This document shows positions 5,136 to 32,328 of a stretch of 33,953 bases of DNA, in pieces. The position numbers were made by a program, and so were the translations under genes. The notes beneath the pieces were generated by a model that had not been told where the DNA came from, did not search any database, and saw nothing but the letters and a program-made list of their open reading frames with translations. Every line of letters starts with the position of its first letter. Position 1 is the stretch's first letter. The DNA comes from a virus (Duplodnaviria; Heunggongvirae; Uroviricota; Caudoviricetes): the IMG/VR virus record IMGVR_UViG_2534682338_000010, positions 1 to 33,953 of that record; one strand, 5' to 3'.

Positions 5136-5483
5136 TTAGATCATTTCGAAGATATAACCAATAAAGCGCATACCCTTGATATAATAAGGAGCAGTGCCTA
5201 CACACACCGCGCGTGCATCACCCAGACAGTTAAAGCTATAAGGATTAACCACATCAACTTCTTGTCCTACACGAAAACGATACTTAGGACGTTTAGCCAA
5301 TGTAGCGACACAAAACACGGTCCCTTTTTCATGATCGCGGATACATTCTTTATATTGTTTATGTTTAACTCTCTTCGCCTCAAAATCATGTGTCATGGAT
5401 TCTGGGCTAATGCCATTAATAAAAATACCGGAAAGCTGGTCGACCGGATAAGTAGGAAATTCAGTGAAAATATTTTTAGCCAT
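5136..5483 (-). CDS. hypothetical protein
   Basis: 115-aa ORF tightly packed in the operon. Confidence 0.5.
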   Translation of the reverse strand: MAKNIFTEFPTYPVDQLSGIFINGISPESMTHDFEAKRVKHKQYKECIRDHEKGTVFCVATLAKRPKYRFRVGQEVDVVNPYSFNCLGDARAVCVGTAPYYIKGMRFIGYIFEMI

Positions 5484-10976: not shown

Positions 10977-11022
10977 GTTGAATACCTCCATGCTGTTATT
11001 TACTAGGCTTAGGGAGAAGGGA

Positions 11023-11676
11023 TTATTTCTTCGATGAATGCCACTTGCTTTCGCTATTCCACTTCCCGGCACGGGAGAAGAATAGATCGTTCTCGTTTCC
11101 AACATAGGAACGGTGGATACCATCGGAGGCATGACTACGAGCGTTTTTATCTAGAACTTCCCAGATACTATTAAGCTGAAATTCTGATTCGTTTTTACAC
11201 TCATCATCTTCATGTTCGATGTTAATCCCGATGGAATCGACTACCCCACGGAAAACAGGGTAAGTGGTTTCAACTTTGCCCGTGTTGGGGTTAAGGAAAA
11301 CCATCTCGATTTTCACATCAGATTTATCGAATTGCTTGTTTCGAATCAGGGTAATGTATTCTTCGCGAACGTTAGAAACAGTTACGTTGATCCCGTTGTT
11401 GTTGATCTCCTTCTCTTCGGTATTCGATGAGATTTGAAGAAAATCACCCGTTGCGAGATACGTAAATCCGTTATAGTCCAAATCGAAATACCCATCTGTA
11501 AGCCGTAGAACGTCCCCTGACGCTGTTATCACTTCGATAATGTGAAACATCGATCCAGTGGAAAAAAGCTGCGGTAGCGTCAATCTAGACACGTTCTGAC
11601 CTGTCTGGTCGTTGTAGACCTCGATGAAGTCCAGATTAGTGCATAGTTTGCTGAATGATTCCTGAATAGTTGCCAT
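11023..11676 (-). CDS. minor tail protein (lambda L-position)
   Basis: ATG overlaps the upstream stop (TAATG coupling) and is preceded by GGAGA; about 217 aa. Confidence 0.5.
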   Translation of the reverse strand: MATIQESFSKLCTNLDFIEVYNDQTGQNVSRLTLPQLFSTGSMFHIIEVITASGDVLRLTDGYFDLDYNGFTYLATGDFLQISSNTEEKEINNNGINVTVSNVREEYITLIRNKQFDKSDVKIEMVFLNPNTGKVETTYPVFRGVVDSIGINIEHEDDECKNESEFQLNSIWEVLDKNARSHASDGIHRSYVGNENDLFFSRAGKWNSESKWHSSKK

Positions 11677-12236
11677 TATACATTCTCCACTAATTCGAAT
11701 TTCATCTTGCCAATCTGGGCGATCTTCCAATCGATATTTTCAGTTTTGAGAACAAATTCACCTTCTACGTTTTGATACTTGATCACCTCACCCGCCAGGA
11801 CGTTTTGACGCAAGTTAGGGAAGAGTTTCATTTCACCACCTGATTTCACGTCTTCGGTGATCGTGTAGATTTTCTTGTGGTTCTCAAACTGGATGATAGT
11901 TCCCGCTTTCAGTGTTCCGGTGAAGTTGGAGATTCTCACCTTACGCCCACCGCGAGCAGTACCAGCAGCAGCCGTTACCATCTGGCGTACATCACCTGTA
12001 TATTTTGAAAAGTAAGACAGTGGCACATTGAAAGGACGACCAAAAAGGTGACGTGCTACAAATTCTTTTACTTCGTTAATATCCTGAGCCATGAAATTCG
12101 CGGTAAATTCTGCTTCGTAAAAATGGATGCCAGTAAAGCGACGCTGGAACTTACCGGAGATAGATTGCGCCTTGAAGAAAGGTTGTTTTGATTTAAGAGT
12201 AAAATCTGTGATTTTAATATTCTTTGATTTGAACAT
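11676..12236 (-). CDS. distal tail protein / minor tail protein (lambda M-position)
   Basis: 186-aa ORF immediately downstream of the tape-measure gene. Confidence 0.5.
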   Translation of the reverse strand: MFKSKNIKITDFTLKSKQPFFKAQSISGKFQRRFTGIHFYEAEFTANFMAQDINEVKEFVARHLFGRPFNVPLSYFSKYTGDVRQMVTAAAGTARGGRKVRISNFTGTLKAGTIIQFENHKKIYTITEDVKSGGEMKLFPNLRQNVLAGEVIKYQNVEGEFVLKTENIDWKIAQIGKMKFELVENV

Positions 12237-12241
12237 AGAAA

Positions 12242-12281
12242 AGCCCCCATAGTTTTATGATTATTTATGACTATGGGGGCT
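12242..12281 (-). terminator. intrinsic terminator / RBS-sequestering hairpin between tape-measure and distal tail genes
   Basis: minus-strand RNA GCCCCCAUAG-18-nt loop-CUAUGGGGGC followed by UUUUCU and then the AUG of the next gene. Confidence 0.55.
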
Positions 12282-12286
12282 TTTAA

Positions 12287-14716
12287 TTACATCTTACGGC
12301 GCTGTGCGTCTTCTACCGCCTGAGCAACTAACTTAGCGTGACGTTTGATGGCGTCCATGACCATCTTGTCTGAGCTATTAACGTTGCCGTTAATGTTCAA
12401 AGGTGCGTTAACTTCAATCGGTTGAGAGTTGCCACCGCCTGATTTTTGAGCAGCAAGGAAGTCTTTCAAATCGCCGTTAGTACGCTGATCAACTACTCGT
12501 TCACCCTTATCAAGCAACCATGTACCCTCACGAGGGATGTTATCAATACCATCGTGAGCCATACCGCTAACGTTAGTAGACTTGATGTTTGCGATGTTCC
12601 CCATGTTCTGAGAAACAGCCAATGCAGCAGCAGCGATTTTTTGACCTGTGGTTACGTTGGTCGGATCGTTCCATGCATCGGTAGCAGCCGTCCACATGTT
12701 CACCGTCGCTTGTCCAATGGAGAATGCTTTATGAGCAGTGAAAGCCATCTGCATAGCTTTAGTGTTTTCCTGCCCGAAGAGAGTCATTGCAGCAGCAAAA
12801 CCGCCGTACATATCATCGGCTATTGACTGACGAGCATCAGCATATTTCTTCTCAATTGCAGCCATTCGTTTTTGATGGTTTTCATTGAGTTTTTCTAATG
12901 CTTCCATCCGTTTAGCCGGATCGGTGATCCCATCAATCTTGAGTTTATCGGTTTTATAATCTTGTTCCGCTTCCGATTTCTCTTTATCGATTGCATTAAA
13001 TTTAGCAAACGGGTTATTTGAGTCTTGATAGTCTAAGCTATTGGTCAACTGATTGGTTTTAAAACCATCCATTCCATGCAAAGAATCTTCAATCTGTGAA
13101 TAACTTTGTTCGGTATCATTCACACGACGCATATATTCTTCGTAGGAGATAGCCTTGCCATCAAGTAACCGTTTATGGCTTTCTAACTCGTTGTCCCTGA
13201 TTTGTTGCAATTGTGTTAAGGCATTCAAAGCATCAACCGGATCAGCACCTAAAATCATCTTGTATACGTTTTCAGTATTCTGATCGATTAAGGATTGGCG
13301 TTTCGCGGCTGCGTCTTGCTGAGAGATTAAGCCCAGATCTAAAGCAGTGTCCAAATCTTTCAAGCTGGCTTCTAACTGCTTGTTCTGAGAAGCAATAGAC
13401 GCGGCGACCTGCCCTTGCAATTTAACATCAAGTGCATTCAGACGCTTGATTGCATCCTCACGTTCTTTCTGTGCTTTTTCTGCGGCTTCCTTAGCCTTTT
13501 TAGCTTTCTCTTCCGCTTTCTTCTTGGCTTTTTCCTCTTCTTTCTTTTCTTTACCAGACTTACCCAATGAAGCTGGTCGAGTTGGTGTAGTCGGGATAGT
13601 CAAATCACGGTTAGGATCTGCCTTGCGGGTTAGATGTTCCCCGTTATCGACAACAATCAGAGAGCCATTTTTCTTATAAGAATCACCAAAACGTTTCTTA
13701 AATCCTTCAACATCAAAGCCAGCAGTACGAGGATCAACACCAGCACCACGGATCGCGGCCTTTTCCCAATCTGCCAGATTATTCCAACGCTTTTCTTTAT
13801 TGTACTTGTCAATAATCTTTTGAGCGTCTTTATGGTTGGCGTTAAGAATACCACCAGTTGCGGTCTTGCCTTCTTTATTCAGTCGATCTAATGCCCTGAA
13901 TAGAGAACTCTTTTCCCAATCAATATTAAACCAGTCAAATAACCAGTTTAAGCTATCAACAAGCGGACCAGTAATGGTCATGCCGACACCTTTCAGGTTA
14001 TTTTCCAGCTTATTAATATTCTGAGAGAATTTATCATATTTTTTAGCGTTTTCTTCGGTGACGTTAACAGATTGATTCTGAATAGCGATCATCGCCTCTT
14101 GAGCACTATTATATTTCTCAAGCTGGCTGGTCATATGGCTTGAATCACTGGCTAAAGATTCCATCATGAACTTGATTTCAGCCATTGATTTTCCGGCTTT
14201 CTTCATGTCATAGAACACTTGGATCGCCGCTTTCATACCACCTTGCGGATCTGTCATGAAGTGAGCATAGTTTTCTAACTTAAGGCCAACCGATTCTAAA
14301 TCATCGGCAATACCACCACCGTTAGCCCACGCATCACCCATCTTATCTAAGGTGTCTTTGTTGATATCACCAAATTTTTCAACTGTTAGGCCAGTACCAG
14401 AAAATTCCTTTTCCAGTCTTTGAAGGGATTCAATCGAGAGTCCGGTCGCCTTAGATACTTCTGAATATTGTTTAACGTATTCCGCGCCAGCTTTAGCGGC
14501 TGCAACCACTGCGGTCGCAACTAAGCCGATACCACCAGCAGCCAAACCAGCAGAGCCAGCGATCCCACGAAGAGATCCAGTCAGACCAGATAAGCCACCA
14601 CCAAAATCAATATTACTTGCCTTTTCAGACAAACTATCGAGAAGGTCGGCGGCTTCATTGGTACTTCTCCTTAGACCTTTATTATCCCCTTCTATTGTTA
14701 CTATATGTTTTGTCAT
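12287..14716 (-). CDS. tail tape-measure protein
   Basis: 809 aa, long coiled-coil/Ala-Lys-Glu-rich central region (KKEEEKAKKKAEEKAKKAKEAAEKAQKERE), preceded by two small chaperone-like ORFs. Confidence 0.8.
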   Translation of the reverse strand: MTKHIVTIEGDNKGLRRSTNEAADLLDSLSEKASNIDFGGGLSGLTGSLRGIAGSAGLAAGGIGLVATAVVAAAKAGAEYVKQYSEVSKATGLSIESLQRLEKEFSGTGLTVEKFGDINKDTLDKMGDAWANGGGIADDLESVGLKLENYAHFMTDPQGGMKAAIQVFYDMKKAGKSMAEIKFMMESLASDSSHMTSQLEKYNSAQEAMIAIQNQSVNVTEENAKKYDKFSQNINKLENNLKGVGMTITGPLVDSLNWLFDWFNIDWEKSSLFRALDRLNKEGKTATGGILNANHKDAQKIIDKYNKEKRWNNLADWEKAAIRGAGVDPRTAGFDVEGFKKRFGDSYKKNGSLIVVDNGEHLTRKADPNRDLTIPTTPTRPASLGKSGKEKKEEEKAKKKAEEKAKKAKEAAEKAQKEREDAIKRLNALDVKLQGQVAASIASQNKQLEASLKDLDTALDLGLISQQDAAAKRQSLIDQNTENVYKMILGADPVDALNALTQLQQIRDNELESHKRLLDGKAISYEEYMRRVNDTEQSYSQIEDSLHGMDGFKTNQLTNSLDYQDSNNPFAKFNAIDKEKSEAEQDYKTDKLKIDGITDPAKRMEALEKLNENHQKRMAAIEKKYADARQSIADDMYGGFAAAMTLFGQENTKAMQMAFTAHKAFSIGQATVNMWTAATDAWNDPTNVTTGQKIAAAALAVSQNMGNIANIKSTNVSGMAHDGIDNIPREGTWLLDKGERVVDQRTNGDLKDFLAAQKSGGGNSQPIEVNAPLNINGNVNSSDKMVMDAIKRHAKLVAQAVEDAQRRKM

Positions 14717-14727
14717 AAATTACCCCT

Positions 14728-15069
14728 TTAACCGCTTCTGAGTTTCTCAAGCAAAGATGGATCAAACATGTTCAGCATTGCCGCTTTACGTTCTTCTTCT
14801 TTCTTGCGTGCAAGTTCTTCCAGTTCTTCTTTAGTTTTAAAGAGTTTTTCTTCTCTAATTAATTGGAATTGGCTAGGCTTGAGTTTCTTTGCAGTTTCAC
14901 GAGTCATTCCTTGTGACGTCATATACATGGAATATTGCAACATCGCATTCTGCATATCATGAAACGCGGGGCTTTGTGGTTCTAAGTAGGTGTCGAAAAT
15001 GTATAATTTCCAAAACAGAGTGATTGGCATATTATCCATTTCATCTTTACTAAGCCCCGATCGCATCAT
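14728..15069 (-). CDS. tail assembly chaperone (T-like partner)
   Basis: 113-aa ORF directly upstream of the tape-measure gene; no good SD; -1 frame relative to the preceding chaperone ORF. Confidence 0.45.
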   Translation of the reverse strand: MMRSGLSKDEMDNMPITLFWKLYIFDTYLEPQSPAFHDMQNAMLQYSMYMTSQGMTRETAKKLKPSQFQLIREEKLFKTKEELEELARKKEEERKAAMLNMFDPSLLEKLRSG

Positions 15070-15098
15070 TTGCCGAAAATAGAAATTCAGAAGCGGGT

Positions 15099-15407
15099 TT
15101 ACTTTACCTCGTTTTCAATTACTGCCGGATCTTGCATCAATGATGCTTGAGCAACCAAACCGATTAATTCACTACGGACGTTAGTATACAGTGCCTTAAC
15201 TTGTTCCATAGATTCAAATACTGGTTTACCGTCTTCATCTTCAATACAACGAAGAATCGAACGTTCATCACGGTCTTCTTTATCAGTATTGAAAACATGT
15301 TCGTTAAATTCTTTTACCGACATAGGGCGAGCATAGAAAGTAAATCCACCGATGGTTAAAGATTCACGTTTCGGAGAAAGGGCTTTCAGCATTTCATTAA
15401 TATTCAT
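15099..15407 (-). CDS. tail assembly chaperone (G-like)
   Basis: 102-aa acidic ORF at the canonical position upstream of the tape-measure gene. Confidence 0.5.
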   Translation of the reverse strand: MNINEMLKALSPKRESLTIGGFTFYARPMSVKEFNEHVFNTDKEDRDERSILRCIEDEDGKPVFESMEQVKALYTNVRSELIGLVAQASLMQDPAVIENEVK

Positions 15408-15449
15408 TCTTGTTTCCTCTTAAGTTAATTCGATATGTTTATTTAGAAT

Positions 15450-15956
15450 TTAAGAGATTTTCAAAGTCTGCTTAGTGCCAGTCTTCTTAATGTTGGTAAG
15501 GAAAGCAGCCGGAGGATTGCTTAACCAGTAGTAATGAAAACCACTTTGCATACTGTTATAAGGAACAGTGACAGCAGCACCACCCAAATTAACGGTTATA
15601 TTCCCCGCTCTACCATTCTGGAGATATACAGCCATAGTAGGAGTACCACCATTGAATTGACCAACGATAACGCCAATCAGACGCCCTACGCCCACGTTTT
15701 CGGGGTTCTCCATAGATCCTTTACCGCGCATGTCAGTTACTGGATAGTTTGAAGCAGTTACACCCCAGTTATTACCCAATGAAGTAGACCACGCAGCAGT
15801 AGCTACAACCGTATCCATACCACGACCACACATCGCACTCATGTTAGCTGGGCGACTAACCTTTAATGCGTTCATTGCTGCGCTCATCCATCGTTGACCA
15901 GTTACAGAAACAGCAGATGACCCGACCCAGCCAGGCTTATTAACGACATTCGCCAT
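15450..15956 (-). CDS. tail-associated structural protein (Gly/Asn-rich)
   Basis: 168-aa ORF; GGAG SD 8 nt upstream; follows the terminator after the putative tube gene. Confidence 0.5.
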   Translation of the reverse strand: MANVVNKPGWVGSSAVSVTGQRWMSAAMNALKVSRPANMSAMCGRGMDTVVATAAWSTSLGNNWGVTASNYPVTDMRGKGSMENPENVGVGRLIGVIVGQFNGGTPTMAVYLQNGRAGNITVNLGGAAVTVPYNSMQSGFHYYWLSNPPAAFLTNIKKTGTKQTLKIS

Positions 15957-15971
15957 TTTGATTACTCCAAT

Positions 15972-15999
15972 AAAAAAGCCCCACCATTAAGGCAGGGCT
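15972..15999 (-). terminator. intrinsic terminator (homologous to the one after the capsid gene)
   Basis: minus-strand hairpin GCCCUGCC-UUAA-GGUGGGGC with a G-U pair, followed by UUUUUU. Confidence 0.65.
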
Positions 16000-16004
16000 T
16001 ATAA

Positions 16005-16124
16005 TTAATCTTTAGCCTTGCGGCTTCGTTTAGCTGTGGCTTTCGCCGTAACTTCTTCTACTTCTGGAATCACCACCGCTTCATGTTCCGGCTGTGGTTC
16101 CGGTTCGGGAAGTTCTTCGAAAGT
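16005..16124 (-). other. in-frame post-TGA extension of the putative tail-tube gene (39 codons then TAA)
   Basis: frame 0 after TGA (16125-16127) is open: TFEELPEPEPQPEHEAVVIPEVEEVTAKATAKRSRKAKD; homologous to the capsid extension. Confidence 0.45.
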
Positions 16125-16601
16125 TCAAGCGGCAGTATTGAAGATTTGCTGTTTCAGCGGAGCACCATCAACGGCAAAGGTAAACTCTTTAGTTACCACT
16201 TCTTCATCGCCACCGTTCATAGCAACTTTAGAAATGAAGCCGTTGTACGCAATGCGAATACCAGTCTGTTTTCCGGCGTCAACATAATACTCTACTTTGA
16301 TCTGGCAGCGAGTGCCGTCTTCGGCAGCTTTTGCGAGCTTCTCGTGTACCGCATCACCTGGGATGTAGTTAACGGTCAGAGTCAGATCTTCAACGTTCAG
16401 TTTACCAACCAGCTTACGGTTATACTGAGAAGAATACGATTTGACTTCTACCGTCCCGCGAGACAGTGAATATTCAGGAAAACCAGCACACTCTTTAATT
16501 TCTTCGTATGCTTCATCAGCAAGATCGGTGTTAGTGGTATCAGCGTGATAGAACAGACTTACCAGACCACCAGTAAAAATATCTTTAAATTGTTGAGACA
16601 T
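16125..16601 (-). CDS. putative major tail tube protein
   Basis: 158 aa; size typical of siphovirus tube proteins; followed by a strong terminator; ends with TGA. Confidence 0.5.
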   Translation of the reverse strand: MSQQFKDIFTGGLVSLFYHADTTNTDLADEAYEEIKECAGFPEYSLSRGTVEVKSYSSQYNRKLVGKLNVEDLTLTVNYIPGDAVHEKLAKAAEDGTRCQIKVEYYVDAGKQTGIRIAYNGFISKVAMNGGDEEVVTKEFTFAVDGAPLKQQIFNTAA

Positions 16602-16657
16602 AGAATTACCCCTTAATTAAATTTGTTATAACGGGGGAACTAGTCCCCCGACTTTTA

Positions 16658-19600
16658 TTATTTAGTTGCTTTCAGTTCGGCTAATTCAGCTTTAGTTTCG
16701 GCAAGTTCTTTAGCCATAGCATCAAACTTAGCGGTCATTTCCTGCATTGCTTTGATGATTAAAGCATTGACAGCAGAGTTAGAAATAGTCTTGATTGCTT
16801 CTGGATGTTCTGGATCTTCGGTGGATTGAATACCTACTGCTTCCGGCAATACTTTTTCCAGATCCTGAGCAATAATACCTACTTCGCGTTTAATCACCGT
16901 GTCATCGGAAAGAGATTTAACTTTATCGTAGGTGTAGACTTTCAGTGAGTTTACTTTCTCTAATGCGCCGTCCTGTAATTCTTCCTTGTTAATTTTCAAA
17001 CGGGAGTCGGAGCGAATGTAAACATCGTTAAACGAACCGTTACGACCTGCGGTAAAGTCACCAGCAGCGTTAAAGTCAAAAGTTGCATCGTGTACGTGCA
17101 TACGCACCATAGCATTTCCGATAGTACCGCTAGGAACATGTACACCCATTGCTGCGATATGATATTTACCTTGATGGGTTGCTTTCCATACGTTATGAGC
17201 GGAATCGGTTGATTGTTGACAGTCGACCTGAATACCAGAAGCACGATCACGCCAGCTAGTCCAACTACCGCCAGCAACAGAACCACGAATCAGACCATTA
17301 CCGCCACCGGAAACAGTACCCGTTTCAAGTTGAATCATCTTACCGCCGAATTTCCAGACTTCGGTTTGTTTCTCACCGCGCATACGCATAACGCCAGCAT
17401 CATCGCAGTACAACAGACCCAATTCTAAGCCATTTGGATCTCTAAACCACAAATGCTTATTGCCACTGCGACGAAACTCAATATCAGCACCGTTAAGCGT
17501 GATATTACCGCCAGTGTGAATTGCTTTAGGTTTAACAGTACCGTTGATGGCAAACTCGATTAATTCAGTACCCGGACCGCCCGGTCGTTGTGTGTACCAG
17601 TGCCAACCGCTTTCGTCCGCACATTCGAATACTTGTTTACGAGCATCAGCACCCCACGCACGGATATTAAAGCTAGAAGTAGCTGTATTTTTGCCCCACG
17701 TTAATTTTCCTTCGGTAGTTAAATCCCCTCGGAAATGAGCAAGTAAGCCACCAGTACCGTTACGTTCTGTAGTAAAGTGAGTTCCGCTAGTGTCCTGGAA
17801 TTGCAAAACGTTATATCGATTGGCATTACTATTCCCCCAATGGTTAATCGTAAAAGAATCCATCGACTGATTTCCACCAGCAGAGAAAGTAAGCAGTCCT
17901 TTTTCTAAGAATACATTGTTGCTAAAACGGGCAGCACGGCTATCTCTTTCAAGAACTAATGCACCTTCGTTACCATCACCGCCTAAAGTAACTTTACCGT
18001 TAGTCAAATCGTAAATGAACGGTCTGTTTCCATTCCATCCGCCCAATTTATCATTTTCGGCAGTAGAAAGAAGATAAACTTTACCACCGTCATTACGCCA
18101 GAATGCACCATAATTACCGTAGATCATGCGGTAGGCGTCGCTATTCATTGAGATGAATTGAGCGTTAGTATAAACTCGTTTTGTGTTACCGGTTGCAAGT
18201 TCGATCTGTCCGTCGATGTGGTGACGAATAGAAGTACCACCTACATCACTATACCATTCAAAAACGTTAGTATCAGCATTACCATAACCGATCCACCCTT
18301 GACGGGTAATAGATCCAGTACGATTATCTTGAAACGCAATATGGTTGGATTGACCAGCAGGACGCCGCAAGGTAATAACATTACTACCTCCACCCAACAT
18401 CATTCGACCAGAAAGAATATTACCTTTATGAGTCCCAGCAATAGAGCTACTAGATTCAACGGATAGAATCTCCTGAGCATCTGTACTACCCGTGGCGAGT
18501 CGATAAGTAGAACCCTGAACCGTCTCATGCCAGATCATTTCGTTATAGTTGCTACGGAATTTACGAATATATTTTCGTCCAGTACCTCTATCATTGCTTA
18601 GATGAACAATGTCATAGCTGTTTTGTGTATTGTCGTCAAAACTCAACACACCACGTTTATTTTCTGTGTTAAAAAGAGTTACGTTGCGACCACCGATAAC
18701 ACCAACGGAAGGTTTAATTAACGTGGCTTCCGGCGTATCATAAACCGTCAAACTTACATAAACAGATTTCCCATATTCGACAATGACGTTATCGGTATAA
18801 CGCTGATATTTCACGTAGATATCATAGTTATCACCGGAAGTATTGACAGCAAATACCTCAAAATCTTTGTTTGTATTTCTACGGTATGCAATTACGTTAA
18901 GACCTTTAGGTCTATCGTTACCACTACGGAGAAGAATTTCTACTACATCAACTTGGTCATATGCCGTAACGTTGTAACCATTACCACCATGAATACGGAA
19001 AAACACACTACGCCCGTTTTGTGGAATTGTTGCGGTTGCCAATTTGAAATATGCAGATACGTTTTCGCTAGAATTGGGAACAGACATAACGACGTTTTTA
19101 ACAAACATCTTATCAACTTCGGCTTTGGTGTATGCACCAATCTCGCCAGGAGTCGGCTTATCACCTTCGTGATACATCTTATAGCTAAAGTTCTTCTGTC
19201 CTTCTCTATCAAAACCATAGGTTTCAACACGAGATCCACCAGACGCATAACGGAAAGTAAATCCGCGACCGTGCGCTTTACCGGCAGAGTGAGGAACGTT
19301 AAGAGTTAGATCCATGAGTCCATCTTGACCATTGGTACGGAAAGCACCAAAGTAGTTAAGATCTCTCGCTGTCTGGTCTTCCAAATAGTTAGCTGTTTTG
19401 GTTAACAGATAGCCGTGATGGTAAGTGTTGGTATTCTTCTTGATGTAAGCAGCATCGGCACTACCTTCAATAGAATCAATTCGCTGGTTAGCTGCGGCAA
19501 TTGCGGCATCAGTAGAAGATTTATTCTGGTCTACCTTGTTGTTAATTGCTGTATGGTTGCTATTAACTGTCCCCGTAAGATTGGTGATCTTCGTGTCGGC

Positions 19601-28048: not shown

Positions 28049-28091
28049 GTAATTACCCTCATTACGAAATATGAAGGTATTTATTAAATTG

Positions 28092-28119
28092 TTGATATTT
28101 TGATAAATACGGGTATTAA
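28092..28119 (+). promoter_or_regulatory. sigma70-like promoter for the 28136 gene
   Basis: TTGATA (28092-28097), 16-nt spacer, TATTAA (28114-28119); AAGGGGG SD before the ATG. Confidence 0.45.
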
Positions 28120-28135: not shown

Positions 28136-28741
28136 ATGCTAATTAATCAGCAACAAAGAGATGAATTAAAATTAGCCTTTTCTTGTTGTACCGATCATGA
28201 ATATCGTTTGCCAGTAAAACATAAGCACTTAAAGACTGATTACACAACATCCGGGTTTAGCCGTGAGGAAGCGAAAGAGATTTTAATAGAATTTTACCGT
28301 GATAATGGTTATACAGACGTTCACAACTTCTTTAAGAAACATAGAACATCACATACAGAGTTTCGGAGAGTCCGAGATTGGTTTGATTTTGATATCAAGC
28401 GTTATTATCGCATTGATGACGGTCCTATCTATCGGTTGCAGTGGAAGCCGATCCGAGAAGTGTTGAAACAGACAAGGGATAGTATGGCTGTCACAATGCC
28501 ACGTAACATAGCTTTTAAGAAAGGATATGGTGATACAAGGGAACTATTCGTTGAACTCGCTAACGTGAAGTACAGCCACTATTACAACGATCCTAAGTCC
28601 TTCTTTGAAGTGCTTCGCAAGGTTGATATTAGTCGGGGTACATATTATTCACGGTTGAAGAAGTACGGGATTAAGGCAGAGTTCTTTATGTCGGTTGACG
28701 ATGGAGAACTTTTTCCGATAAAATGTAAGTCCTCTAAATAA
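28136..28741 (+). CDS. hypothetical protein with C-terminal small DNA-binding (HTH-like) domain
   Basis: 201 aa; C-terminal segment ISRGTYYSRLKKYGIKAEF resembles the two small paralogs at 28777 and 32146. Confidence 0.6.
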   Translation: MLINQQQRDELKLAFSCCTDHEYRLPVKHKHLKTDYTTSGFSREEAKEILIEFYRDNGYTDVHNFFKKHRTSHTEFRRVRDWFDFDIKRYYRIDDGPIYRLQWKPIREVLKQTRDSMAVTMPRNIAFKKGYGDTRELFVELANVKYSHYYNDPKSFFEVLRKVDISRGTYYSRLKKYGIKAEFFMSVDDGELFPIKCKSSK

Positions 28742-28776
28742 AGGTGAACATTCACTTTAATTTGGAGAAAATGACT

Positions 28777-29004
28777 ATGACTACTAAAGCTACTCGCGGT
28801 CGTCCTGCCCGTTTTAACGCTGAACAGATGGCTGATATTGCCTACGCTTATTATACAGCGGATCGTGGTAAGGAAGCGAAAGAACAGATTCTTAGTGAAC
28901 ATGGGATTTCAATTGCCCAATTCTATAAGAATATGAAGAAGTTAGACATTAAATTCTATGTTCAGATCGGTGATGGTCAGATCGTAGAAGCAACAGGTTT
29001 TTGA
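28777..29004 (+). CDS. small DNA-binding protein (GRP/AT-hook-like N-terminus plus HTH-like core)
   Basis: MTTKATRGRPARFNAEQMADIAYAYY...; GGAG 9 nt upstream of this ATG; track ORF begins at an upstream GTG (28744). Confidence 0.55.
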   Translation: MTTKATRGRPARFNAEQMADIAYAYYTADRGKEAKEQILSEHGISIAQFYKNMKKLDIKFYVQIGDGQIVEATGF

Positions 29005-30517: not shown

Positions 30518-30985
30518 TTACAGCATATCTAAGCCTTCATCGTAACCGTAGAAGCCATTCTGAGAAGAGAAACAGATTGGAGCGTAGTCGTCGTCATCTT
30601 CGTCTTGTTCATCGCGTTCTGGTGCTTTCTGAGCGGTTTCTTTGCCGTAGTTAAACATTGCTTCATCCAGTTCATAGACAGTAACGAAGCTACCTAAATC
30701 AATGTCATAATCACGGACTTCGAAAGGCAGGTCATCACGAACAATGATTGCTGGAATGTTCTGGTATTTCAGGCGGTCTTCATCGGTGAAGCAGTTAACA
30801 ACAATGGTCGGCTTCTTATTACGGCAAAACGCATAACATGCACTAGAGAAATGGGATTCATCGGAATTGAAAAGGATGTTATAACCACGTTCACGGAACA
30901 TCTTCATTAACTTGTCATTGTGGAAGCTATCAGCATCAAAACCTAACAGGATGAAAGGAGTAGTGGTAGTCATTTTATGGTTCAT
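30518..30985 (-). CDS. hypothetical early protein with strongly acidic C-terminal region
   Basis: 155 aa; AGAGGA SD 8 nt upstream; C-terminal ERDEQDEDDDDY. Confidence 0.6.
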   Translation of the reverse strand: MNHKMTTTTPFILLGFDADSFHNDKLMKMFRERGYNILFNSDESHFSSACYAFCRNKKPTIVVNCFTDEDRLKYQNIPAIIVRDDLPFEVRDYDIDLGSFVTVYELDEAMFNYGKETAQKAPERDEQDEDDDDYAPICFSSQNGFYGYDEGLDML

Positions 30986-31388
30986 AGTGGAAATCCTCTA
31001 AAAGAAAGTGAATCAAAGTAATTCTGATATTATTTATAAGAGAAAATTCTTGATGATTTTGGAAGGGATTGTTACTCACTTCGTTCGTTTACTAGAATCA
31101 GTTATCATCTGGTATTAAATCCCTTTCTAAGAAAATCCTTTCAAAAGTGATTCTCGATGCCACGCAGTGGCGTCGCAGACGTTTGGGAGTGAGCGAAGCG
31201 AGCGAGCAAACTAGTTAATTCCTTCTAAGATCATCTAGTTTAAATTAGTGTTACTAGAAGTAATTGGTTAGCGCTTCGCGCAGTCGGGCTACGCCCTCCT
31301 AATATCTTTTTGGTTATTTGTTGTTTTTGGTTTTACACATGAGCGTAGCGAATGTGTTATATAATATCTATGCACGCCCGATTCCCCG

Positions 31389-31630
31389 TTTTGCCCCTCA
31401 CTAAGTTAATGTTTTATAAAGAGTTTTTCTCACAAATCCTTTTCGGGGGCAAATTTCAGGGGCAAAAATTAGATTTTCAGGGGCAATTATTGGCATTTCA
31501 GGGGCAAAAATGAGGGGCAAAATCACTGTTTCCCAGAATTTCAGGGGCAAAAATAGTAGGTTTCAGGGGCAAAAATGGGATGTGGAATCTAGGGGATTTT
31601 GGTTCAGGGGCAAAATTCGGGGGCAATTTT
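31389..31630 (+). repeat. iteron-like array: 9 direct copies and 1 inverted copy of GGGGCAA(A/T)
   Basis: direct copies starting at 31445, 31459, 31480, 31501, 31514, 31544, 31566, 31607, 31619; inverted copy at 31389-31397; several have the extended form TTTCAGGGGCAAAAAT. Confidence 0.8.
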
Positions 31631-31667
31631 CATAGTGTAGGGCTAGTGTAGGTTTGAAAATCCTTTG

Positions 31668-31696
31668 TTGACACTGTGTAGGATCGGTGGTATACT
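31668..31696 (+). promoter_or_regulatory. near-consensus sigma70 promoter P1
   Basis: TTGACA (31668-31673), 17-nt spacer, TATACT (31691-31696). Confidence 0.55.
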
Positions 31697-31724
31697 TGAA
31701 AATTCGAGATAAATATTTTATAAT
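31696..31724 (+). promoter_or_regulatory. near-consensus sigma70 promoter P2 (tandem with P1)
   Basis: TTGAAA (31696-31701), 17-nt spacer, TATAAT (31719-31724). Confidence 0.55.
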
Positions 31725-32145
31725 ATTTGTATTGAAAGTGAAAATTTACCGATTTTCCTTCCTATTGTTATCACCGTGTTAAATTGTTATATGTCTGTGA
31801 AGATTTGGATCTGAGAGAAAATCTTGTAACAAATCTTTACAATTCATAGCTCAATTAATGCTCACCGCTTTAGCAAAAAGTGCTATGCCTTTTTCTAAAT
31901 TGATTGAATATACATCAATTTGGTTAAATCGTGTTCTTCGCTTTAGCAATTCGTGCTGTGGTTTAACACATTTAACACGTCTGATAACATCTGAATAACA
32001 TTTTAACATATCTCTGTTATAAATACATATATAAGAGATAAATGTGAGGGGTTGAAAAATAAAATACAATCCCCATATAAATAATAGTGAGCGGTTAACG
32101 CTCTTTTTTAAGAAATCATTAATCCACATTGTAGGAGGATTCGAG

Positions 32146-32328
32146 ATGGCACGACCTGTTAAGTTCACTCGCGAAATCATCTTAGAAATGGCTAAACGCT
32201 ACTTTGAGTTAACGCCGGGTGTGAGAATTGAAGAGTGGTTTAAAAATGAGGGCATCGATAAATCAACCTTTCATAAACTGCTAAAACGATATGACATTAA
32301 AGTGAAGATTGAAGCTACCGTTTGGTAA
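32146..32328 (+). CDS. small DNA-binding protein (paralog of the 28777 gene)
   Basis: 60 aa MARPVKFTREIILEMAKRYFELTPGV...; AGGAGGA SD 6 nt upstream. Confidence 0.65.
   Translation: MARPVKFTREIILEMAKRYFELTPGVRIEEWFKNEGIDKSTFHKLLKRYDIKVKIEATVW

Follow-up and report, generated by a model that had tools for sequence, protein, structure and literature searches.

A hairpin between the tape measure and Dit genes of an Escherichia coli prophage masks the Dit Shine-Dalgarno sequence and bears a promoter-like box in its loop

The window, that is the whole stretch of 33,953 nucleotides analysed here (IMG/VR record IMGVR_UViG_2534682338_000010), represents most of a prophage of about 37.6 kb located within the ycdX gene of E. 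coli. The late genes lie on the minus strand and start with terminase, portal, a protease-capsid fusion, a long T4-like fibre, the tail tube and a gp38-like adhesin; they continue with two chaperones, the tape measure protein (TMP), the distal tail protein (Dit), a hub N-domain protein, a DUF6950 protein and a J-like tip protein. No terminase small-subunit gene was evident upstream of the large subunit. The element described here is located at the junction of the TMP and Dit genes and is composed of the following features, given in the order of transcription.

12287..14716, minus strand: TMP gene from the ORF list, 809 aa, matching phrog_13674 (E = 3.9e-65) and several other TMP families
12281..12284, minus strand: A-run that starts 2 nt past the TMP stop codon, pairs with the U-run and lengthens the stem to 14-15 bp
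12271..12280, minus strand: 5' arm GCCCCCAUAG, the anti-Shine-Dalgarno strand, from folding and covariation with the 3' arm
12253..12270, minus strand: loop of 18 nt, UCAUAAAUAAUCAUAAAA, read from the minus strand
12262..12268, minus strand: invariant heptamer ATAAATA in the loop, a putative promoter-like box matching TATAAATA at 7 of 8 positions
12253..12257, minus strand: predicted transcription start zone, assuming a T4-type -10 element
12243..12252, minus strand: 3' arm CUAUGGGGGC, from folding and covariation
12244..12248, minus strand: Dit Shine-Dalgarno sequence GGGGG inside the 3' arm, 7 nt upstream of AUG
12237..12242, minus strand: U-rich tract UUUUCU right after the stem (UUUUUCU in many relatives)
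11676..12236, minus strand: Dit gene, 186 aa, with the start codon AUG at 12236-12234

The TMP gene stops with UAA at 12289-12287 on the minus strand, and UU and then AAAA (12284-12281) follow. Reading of the minus strand, folding and the ranking of inverted repeats confirmed the arrangement that the first-pass annotation had described, namely a 10-bp stem, UUUUCU and AUG between the TMP stop codon and the start at 12236. Its assignment of the two flanking genes to the tape measure and the tail tip was confirmed by phrog_13674, phrog_1302, homologue N-termini and PGAP. The Dit ORF matched phrog_1302 with E = 1e-16, and its match to the pb9 B domain (PF21430) was weak; the start at 12236 agreed with the N-termini of homologues (43-89% identity) and with the PGAP calls in four E. 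coli genomes. The Dit stop codon overlaps the start of the next tip gene, the hub gene, as UAAUG. If the A and U runs on either side and one further U-A pair are included, the junction contains a perfect inverted repeat of 15 nt per arm, which ranked first among those detected in the whole window (about 34 kb). The minimum free energy of a 71-nt junction stretch was -25.6 kcal/mol, compared with -9.1 ± 2.4 kcal/mol for 200 dinucleotide shuffles (z = -7.0), and none of the 200 shuffles folded as well. The arm is not a repeated element in the window, and one weak match pointed to a similar hairpin masking a Shine-Dalgarno sequence at 5511-5490. Covariance models of Rfam 15 run over 11000-17000 gave only a chance match to SCARNA7, whose 16 bits are far below the gathering score of 65 (E = 0.77). 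A 60-aa ORF at 12068-12250, which starts within the 3' arm, was rejected as a gene because its ATG is missing in the Salmonella-type relatives.

The hairpin had been named a terminator, and this name agrees with the stem and the U-run and disagrees with the loop. The stem is GC-rich, with a 10-bp core containing six G-C pairs and 14-15 bp when extended, and it is located 2-6 nt past the TMP stop codon. The U-tract is UUUUCU followed by AUGUU, and 4-5 U were found in all relatives of the compact form. However, the loop comprises 18 nt where 3-8 nt are typical, and only for this reason did a simple terminator scan, which accepts loops up to 8 nt, fail to report the hairpin. The U-run is short, so that termination is probably partial; taken together with the long loop, the 4-5 U predict partial termination at best.

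Other clear U-run terminators in this phage numbered three, located after the capsid, tube and J genes. GC-rich hairpins were observed in almost every larger gap of the late region (about 26120, 24040, 21868-21847, 20241-20224, 16650-16632, 16000-15976 and 6762-6729). The hairpins behind J and behind the capsid and tube extensions contain U-runs, and those after terminase (UUCG loop), portal (GGGGGC-gcaat-GCCCCC) and the fibre gene do not.

The capsid and tube extensions were observed as follows. The major capsid and tail tube genes both end at an in-frame UGA (UGA-ACU) followed by 40-44 stop-free codons, at 22005-21873 and 16127-16005 on the minus strand. Each extension is composed of an acidic proline-rich linker and a common basic tail (VTAKATxK..RKxK), with a near-identical U-run terminator after it. 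Among close relatives the reading frame of the tube extension is preserved, with indels of +6 nt and conservative substitutions; both stretches are unannotated by PGAP, and the extension is absent in Salmonella-type relatives. It looks like a programmed UGA read-through, which would add the tail to a fraction of the capsid and tube subunits.

GGGGG at 12248-12244 was the only Shine-Dalgarno-like sequence found before the Dit AUG, and it lies inside the 3' arm as the first-pass annotation had stated. At thirteen other genes in the window, GGGG or GGGGG was found 4-7 nt before ATG. Two relatives belonging to one lineage (L041 and L119) contain GGAGG together with a compensating C-to-U change in the 5' arm, which indicates a double constraint on the Shine-Dalgarno arm. 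Judged by these comparisons, GGGGG is the genuine Shine-Dalgarno sequence of Dit. The start codon is only 6-7 nt past the stem, and therefore the 3' arm doubles as the Shine-Dalgarno sequence.

By folding of the read-through RNA, the probability of the Shine-Dalgarno sequence being unpaired was about 0, and opening of the initiation region cost about 23.6 kcal/mol. For RNAs starting at 12258-12254, which are without the 5' arm, opening of the Shine-Dalgarno sequence cost about 4.6 kcal/mol. When 12 nt from the first base of the TMP stop codon were forced to be single-stranded, three of the five G residues reached an unpaired probability of about 0.4. By this modelling, a mask of such stability would nearly abolish de novo initiation of the essential dit gene, and therefore some bypass route would have to exist. 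Since the Dit stop codon overlaps the start of the next gene, the genes behind Dit would be affected by the mask too.

Junction sequences were taken from four E. coli chromosomes and 37 IMG/VR contigs, and Salmonella or metagenome contigs were added via graded Dit homologues. Hand alignment anchored on the arm ends gave 11 distinct junction sequences free of indels, with Dit 61-100% identical; a MAFFT alignment of the junctions, in which the Salmonella-type arms were out of register, was set aside. Through the 11 sequences, none of the ten core pairs was broken. Four pairs (4, 7, 9 and 10) changed on both sides, from A-U to C-G, C-G to U-A, C-G to A-U and G-C to U-A, and C-to-U changes at pairs 5 and 6 gave G.U in the sense RNA and A.C in the antisense. 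Pair counts were controlled by an arms-only alignment with an artificial GAAA loop, in which 96% of cells were paired and the covariation score was 0.278, compared with 0.10 for shuffled alignments; none of 500 shuffles reached 0.278, and slid registers gave at most 0.046, 6-fold lower than the true register. The complementarity of the A-run and the U-run was kept in relatives as well, for example as AAAUA/UAUUU in L112, L113 and L116. From these substitution patterns, the stem is under selection as an RNA structure of the sense strand.

Most relatives contain in the loop an inner mini-stem of 4-6 bp (UGAU/AUCA, UUGAU/AUCAA or UAGAU/AUCUA), which covaries too (UUGAU/AUCAA to UAGAU/AUCUA) and leaves an apical loop of 4-6 nt. 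In the window, C at 12269 disrupts this mini-stem, and the same holds for 12 identical relatives. A search of IMG/VR with a degenerate hairpin pattern, which was one base off for the E. coli form, gave two chance matches in coding DNA.

The loop was more conserved than the stem, and GAUAAAUA (CAUAAAUA in the window) was invariant in all 11 sequences. This invariance could reflect another, sequence-specific role. The box with its preceding base, cATAAATA, is located at 12269-12262, about 25 nt before the Dit AUG; the first base is C in the window and G in most relatives, compared with T in TATAAATA. T4 late promoters follow a spacing rule from box to start, and this rule was used for the predicted start zone. 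A start 5-7 nt downstream of the box would exclude the whole 5' arm.

ATAAATA occurs 12 times in the window. Using our own gene mask, 10 occurrences were intergenic (2.5 expected) and two were coding (7.7 expected), and both coding copies fall in one doubtful ORF. The depletion within genes is partly trivial, because TAA and the rare ATA codon are both part of the box. Six occurrences are the exact TATAAATA, and most copies sit 25-45 nt before an ATG of the same strand. The genes with an upstream ATAAATA include terminase, the gene before the endolysin (lysis), the divergent gene at 28136 and the gene at 30518-30985. Nine or ten genes of the window are preceded by the shorter core TAAATA, located at -25 to -44 and usually just past a junction hairpin. 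By this distribution, ATAAATA would appear to behave like a promoter box of this phage group.

A sigma-70 consensus scan found no promoter at the loop position and no -35 element. The sigma-70 reading of the loop was rejected for the lack of a consensus match, and also because, by eye, the Salmonella form does not keep the AATAAT hexamer of the E. coli form. Inspection by eye led us to reject Fur-box and IHF readings as well, the Fur consensus being matched at about 11 of 19 positions. Among the prophage ORFs searched against PHROGs, Pfam, NCBIfam and PDB sequences, no late sigma factor or activator was recognisable, and the PGAP annotation of the full 37.6-kb prophage contained no late sigma factor; remote homologues may have escaped these searches.

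Two other hairpins masking a Shine-Dalgarno sequence were observed right after a box on the minus strand. At 5518-5484, upstream of the gene 5136-5483, the order is ATAAATA-CCCTCATA-gaatct-TATGGGGG-tataac-ATG, and at 28084-28049, upstream of the terminase gene, it is ATAAATA-CCTTCAT-atttcgta-ATGAGGG-taattac-ATG. A C-rich anti-Shine-Dalgarno pentamer fills the 5 nt past each box, and therefore an RNA initiated from the box would lack the pentamer. Close relatives gave no informative variation at these hairpins, and in the region upstream of terminase their sequences were near-identical. Between terminase on the minus strand and the gene 28136 on the plus strand, we observed an outward-facing, back-to-back pair of ATAAATA (28077-28110, inverted repeat I14). 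The stretch separating these two boxes holds an IHF-like ATCAACAATTTA by eye, and the pair mirrors the palindromic spacers of the relatives with divergent Dit described below.

The related DNA was found in 56 of 5,426 complete E. coli genomes; strains 14EC007 and DEC5A are examples of lysogens of this prophage. A near-identity DNA search among isolated phages gave no match, and a search with the Dit protein among isolated phages found only DCP80, with about 43-44% identity in Dit and capsid. Scanning genome representatives with the Dit alignment gave one locus only, a MAG contig identical to a viral contig, and a literature search on ycdX prophages returned no relevant match. The DCP80 sequence (L001, PQ671644.1, 10905-23462) belongs to a 141-kb record labelled as Straboviridae/Gaprivervirus, yet it is a homologous structural module of siphovirus type. 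An endonuclease VII gene lies behind the module, which contains three cassettes of identical style, each with a CCTTCGGG hairpin, a U-run and TATAAATA. The record may be chimeric, or may come from an unusual large phage.

In the collinear relatives examined, a hairpin was found directly 3' of the TMP stop codon, and the hairpin sequences were unrelated. Classical terminators are located past TMP in L090, L095 and L100, and GC hairpins without a U-run in DCP80, L077/L117 and L094. In the relatives with a classical terminator, ATAAATA is placed between its U-run and a separate Shine-Dalgarno sequence, 22-38 nt before the Dit ATG. The same order of terminator, box and Shine-Dalgarno sequence was found at the tube-chaperone junction in seven lineages, and it occurs three times in phage DCP80. 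Of 19 lineages, 16 contain TAAATA in the 60 nt preceding Dit, most often at -27 to -40; in shuffles this number averaged 1.8 and never exceeded 7. The 19 lineages are related to each other and not independent. From this order in the relatives, the hairpin of the window can be read as a compacted version of an ancestral cassette. The position of the box between the post-TMP terminator and the Dit Shine-Dalgarno sequence suggests that the tip genes have a transcript of their own, without the 5' arm.

In divergent relatives (L034-L038, L043, L080 and L085-L088, with Dit at about 4001 or 3501), Dit and the hub N-domain gene run opposite to the tube, chaperones and TMP. The divergent spacer is 50-75 nt long, and its inverted repeat of 11-18 bp contains both Shine-Dalgarno sequences. 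Several of these spacers contain the exact heptamer on both strands, with each copy facing its own gene.

Some further observations were made on the relatives. Upstream of Dit in L094, L096, L097 and L102, we found GGGGGC-uucau-GCCCCC-UAAAUACAUUAAAAUAA-GGGG-cauaua-AUG, in which the C-run can pair with either the upstream G-run or the downstream G-run of the Shine-Dalgarno sequence, a switch-like layout. In contig L009 (1-96), the 3' end of TMP is replaced by IS1, one end of which directly adjoins the TMP-Dit hairpin at its 5' base. Strain 14EC007 has an IS1 in the gap that separates J from the gene after it, and strain E275a has an IS2 within the fibre gene; the loci listed for insertion sequences besides L009 are L134 12808-13505 and L039 11551-12779.

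Elsewhere in the window, tandem repeats of 13 and 21 nt (AATTTCAGGGGCAAAAATTAG, 2.9 copies) were found at 31441-31511 in the gene-poor region 31000-31850. This long stretch is non-coding and is flanked by early-type genes, and the repeats could represent iterons or an array of operators. The proteins encoded on the plus strand at 28136-28741, 28744-29004 and 32146-32328 contain, by eye in the translations, a common repeated unit of about 60 aa, with the pattern ..RP..F.. and then G-I-x-x-x-x-F/Y-x-x-L/M-K-K/R-x-x-I-K. These three proteins gave no family matches, and they may be small DNA-binding proteins.

Considering the TMP-Dit element as a whole, we speculate that it is a compacted cassette of terminator, promoter-like box and Shine-Dalgarno sequence with the three parts nested in 46 nt, the uncompacted form of which would divide the structural genes from one another across this phage group, a reading we would put at an even chance. 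RNA coming from the TMP gene would fold the hairpin, and part of it would terminate at the U-run. In the read-through RNA, the Shine-Dalgarno sequence would be locked in a stem of about -24 kcal/mol, and Dit and the coupled tip genes would hardly be translated; a ribosome stopping at the TMP UAA, 2-6 nt upstream, would at most pry open the base of the stem. Transcripts begun about 5-7 nt past the box (about 12257-12253) would be without the 5' arm, would have the Shine-Dalgarno sequence free and would supply most of the tip proteins. The logic would be as in the T4 genes e, soc, 49 and I-TevI, plus a terminator function. Termination, promoter activity and the start site at this element are what we infer from sequence. 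The first-pass annotation had read the element as a simple down-tuning of the tip genes; the masking of the Shine-Dalgarno sequence stands, but the invariant ATAAATA had been overlooked, and the sequences suggest insulation plus re-start as the net effect instead.

Another explanation, possible though in our estimate rather improbable, is a leaky intrinsic terminator combined with a Shine-Dalgarno mask and no internal promoter. The tip genes would be expressed from read-through RNA only and Dit by translational coupling, with the tip output tied to the TMP output and lower than it. The hairpin, the U-run and the masked Shine-Dalgarno sequence, all confirmed above, fit this explanation, and so does the position of the TMP stop codon, which precedes the extended stem by 2 nt and its GC core by 6 nt, with the 12 nt forced single-stranded partly freeing the Shine-Dalgarno sequence (three of five G at about 0.4). 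The tight gene packing behind Dit and the UAAUG overlap of Dit and hub fit a single translational entry point, and the searches in PHROGs, Pfam, NCBIfam and PDB sequences that found no phage sigma factor are consistent with it as well. However, the distance from stop to stem is not conserved: in L112, L113 and L116 the C-run lies 13-16 nt from the stop codon, so that a ribosome terminating there would get no further than the A/U base of the stem. Coupling also leaves unexplained why the heptamer is invariant amid a varying stem, and why it recurs between terminator and Shine-Dalgarno sequence and before many genes. In several relatives, moreover, Dit heads its own divergent operon. The first-pass annotation had proposed a stoichiometry control, by which the tips would be lowered relative to the tape measure. 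This argument is weak, because siphovirus tails contain Dit as a hexamer and the tape measure as a trimer, and Dit is not needed below the amount of TMP.

We consider it unlikely that the hairpin is a signal for RNA processing or stability instead of a terminator, where an RNase III-type site or a barrier to 3' exonucleases would divide the polycistronic late RNA, make the upstream message more stable and, once cleavage has occurred, leave the Dit Shine-Dalgarno sequence free. The phage lambda N leader is a precedent for cleavage freeing a Shine-Dalgarno sequence. In relatives, the outer and inner stems together reach about 19-20 bp with a conserved bulge on the 3' side, but the inner stem is broken in the window and 12 identical relatives. 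RNase III sites span about 20 bp, mostly double-stranded and often with an internal loop; the outer stem here gives 14-15 bp, and the inner stem of relatives adds 4-6 bp with the 3' bulge. The GC hairpins without a U-run (DCP80, L077/L117, L094 and the window junctions after terminase, portal and fibre) favour processing, and therefore not all junction hairpins of the group can be terminators; yet in the lineage of the window the U-run is conserved with its matching A-run. The recurrence of ATAAATA outside hairpins is left unexplained by processing.

Very improbable is an element acting at the DNA level, either a palindromic site for a dimeric regulator or a signal for recombination at a module junction, with the RNA fold incidental: the 15-bp DNA palindrome is perfect, palindromes of 11-18 bp occupy the equivalent place in divergent-Dit relatives and an IS1 end lies exactly at the 5' base of the hairpin in L009, but two independent C-to-T changes preserve pairing solely as G.U of the sense RNA, being A.C on the opposite strand, and disrupt the palindrome in DNA, the arms are free to change sequence while pairing is kept, the opposite of a protein-recognised operator, and the match of relatives to the query (H25 and H26) ends inside the TMP gene and not at the hairpin.

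Returning to the nested cassette, we might extend it tentatively to the whole group, as a reading somewhat more likely to be wrong than right. In the temperate prophages of siphovirus type from E. coli, Salmonella and related hosts, and in the DCP80 module, the structural genes would be expressed as many short units bounded by hairpins or terminators, each restarted from a T4-late-type promoter without -35, similar to TATAAATA, via a factor unrecognisable by sequence. The TMP-Dit element would be a three-in-one form of it, from which only locally initiated RNA is translated. The component mechanisms are of known kinds and this instance is new; we infer the nesting of the promoter-like box in a terminator loop and the family-wide cassette.

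If the composite reading is true, a small phage packs signals for stop, restart and translation gating into less than 50 nt, and the tail-tip proteins come only from their own transcript, not from run-on of the upstream tail genes. It would also mean that T4-late-style logic, with a bare TATAAATA-like box and no -35, exists in a temperate siphovirus lineage without a recognisable late sigma factor. This would point to an undiscovered transcription factor, and transcription units in these so far unannotated prophages could be marked by a simple rule on sequence. Should the basic reading alone be true, the element is a well-documented case of an ordinary intercistronic terminator overlapping a ribosome-binding site.

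Hairpins sequestering the Shine-Dalgarno sequence are found at the T4 genes e, soc, 49 and I-TevI, where they are bypassed by an internal late promoter TATAAATA (PMC3014915, PMC2988022). As in these genes, the Shine-Dalgarno sequence of Dit is in a stable helix on the read-through RNA, and the box is placed in the loop such that transcripts started from it would lack the 5' strand of the helix and be translatable. The present element differs from the T4 hairpins in belonging to a temperate prophage of siphovirus type without recognisable gp55, gp33 and gp45. It also has the U-run anatomy of a terminator, its box is in the loop and not in the 5' strand, and the regulated gene is a core tail gene. 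A junction of terminator and then promoter is found in T4 mobE/nrdB (PMC2988022).

With the Rho-independent terminators of E. coli and its phages, the element shares a GC stem followed by a U-run at the end of a gene, an upstream A-run which gives a bidirectional look, and a putative restart signal downstream. Unlike usual terminators of this kind, it has a loop of 18 nt instead of 3-8, a U-run of 4-5 U, and a start codon 6-7 nt past the stem. Translational coupling via masked ribosome-binding sites is known from the coat and replicase genes of the RNA phage MS2 and from bacterial operons. As in coupling of the MS2 type, the downstream Shine-Dalgarno sequence is base-paired, and an upstream terminating or translating ribosome would be needed to open it; in contrast, the upstream stop codon here is outside the stem at a distance that varies among relatives, and a bypass by a promoter in the loop is indicated. 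In lambda-type tail operons, protein ratios are set through the G/GT frameshift and through codon and Shine-Dalgarno strength on one antiterminated late transcript. The gene order of tube, chaperones, tape measure, tip proteins and J-like fibre is as in lambda, whereas the late region of this prophage appears as many hairpin-bounded units, each then followed by an ATAAATA box, and not as one long transcript.
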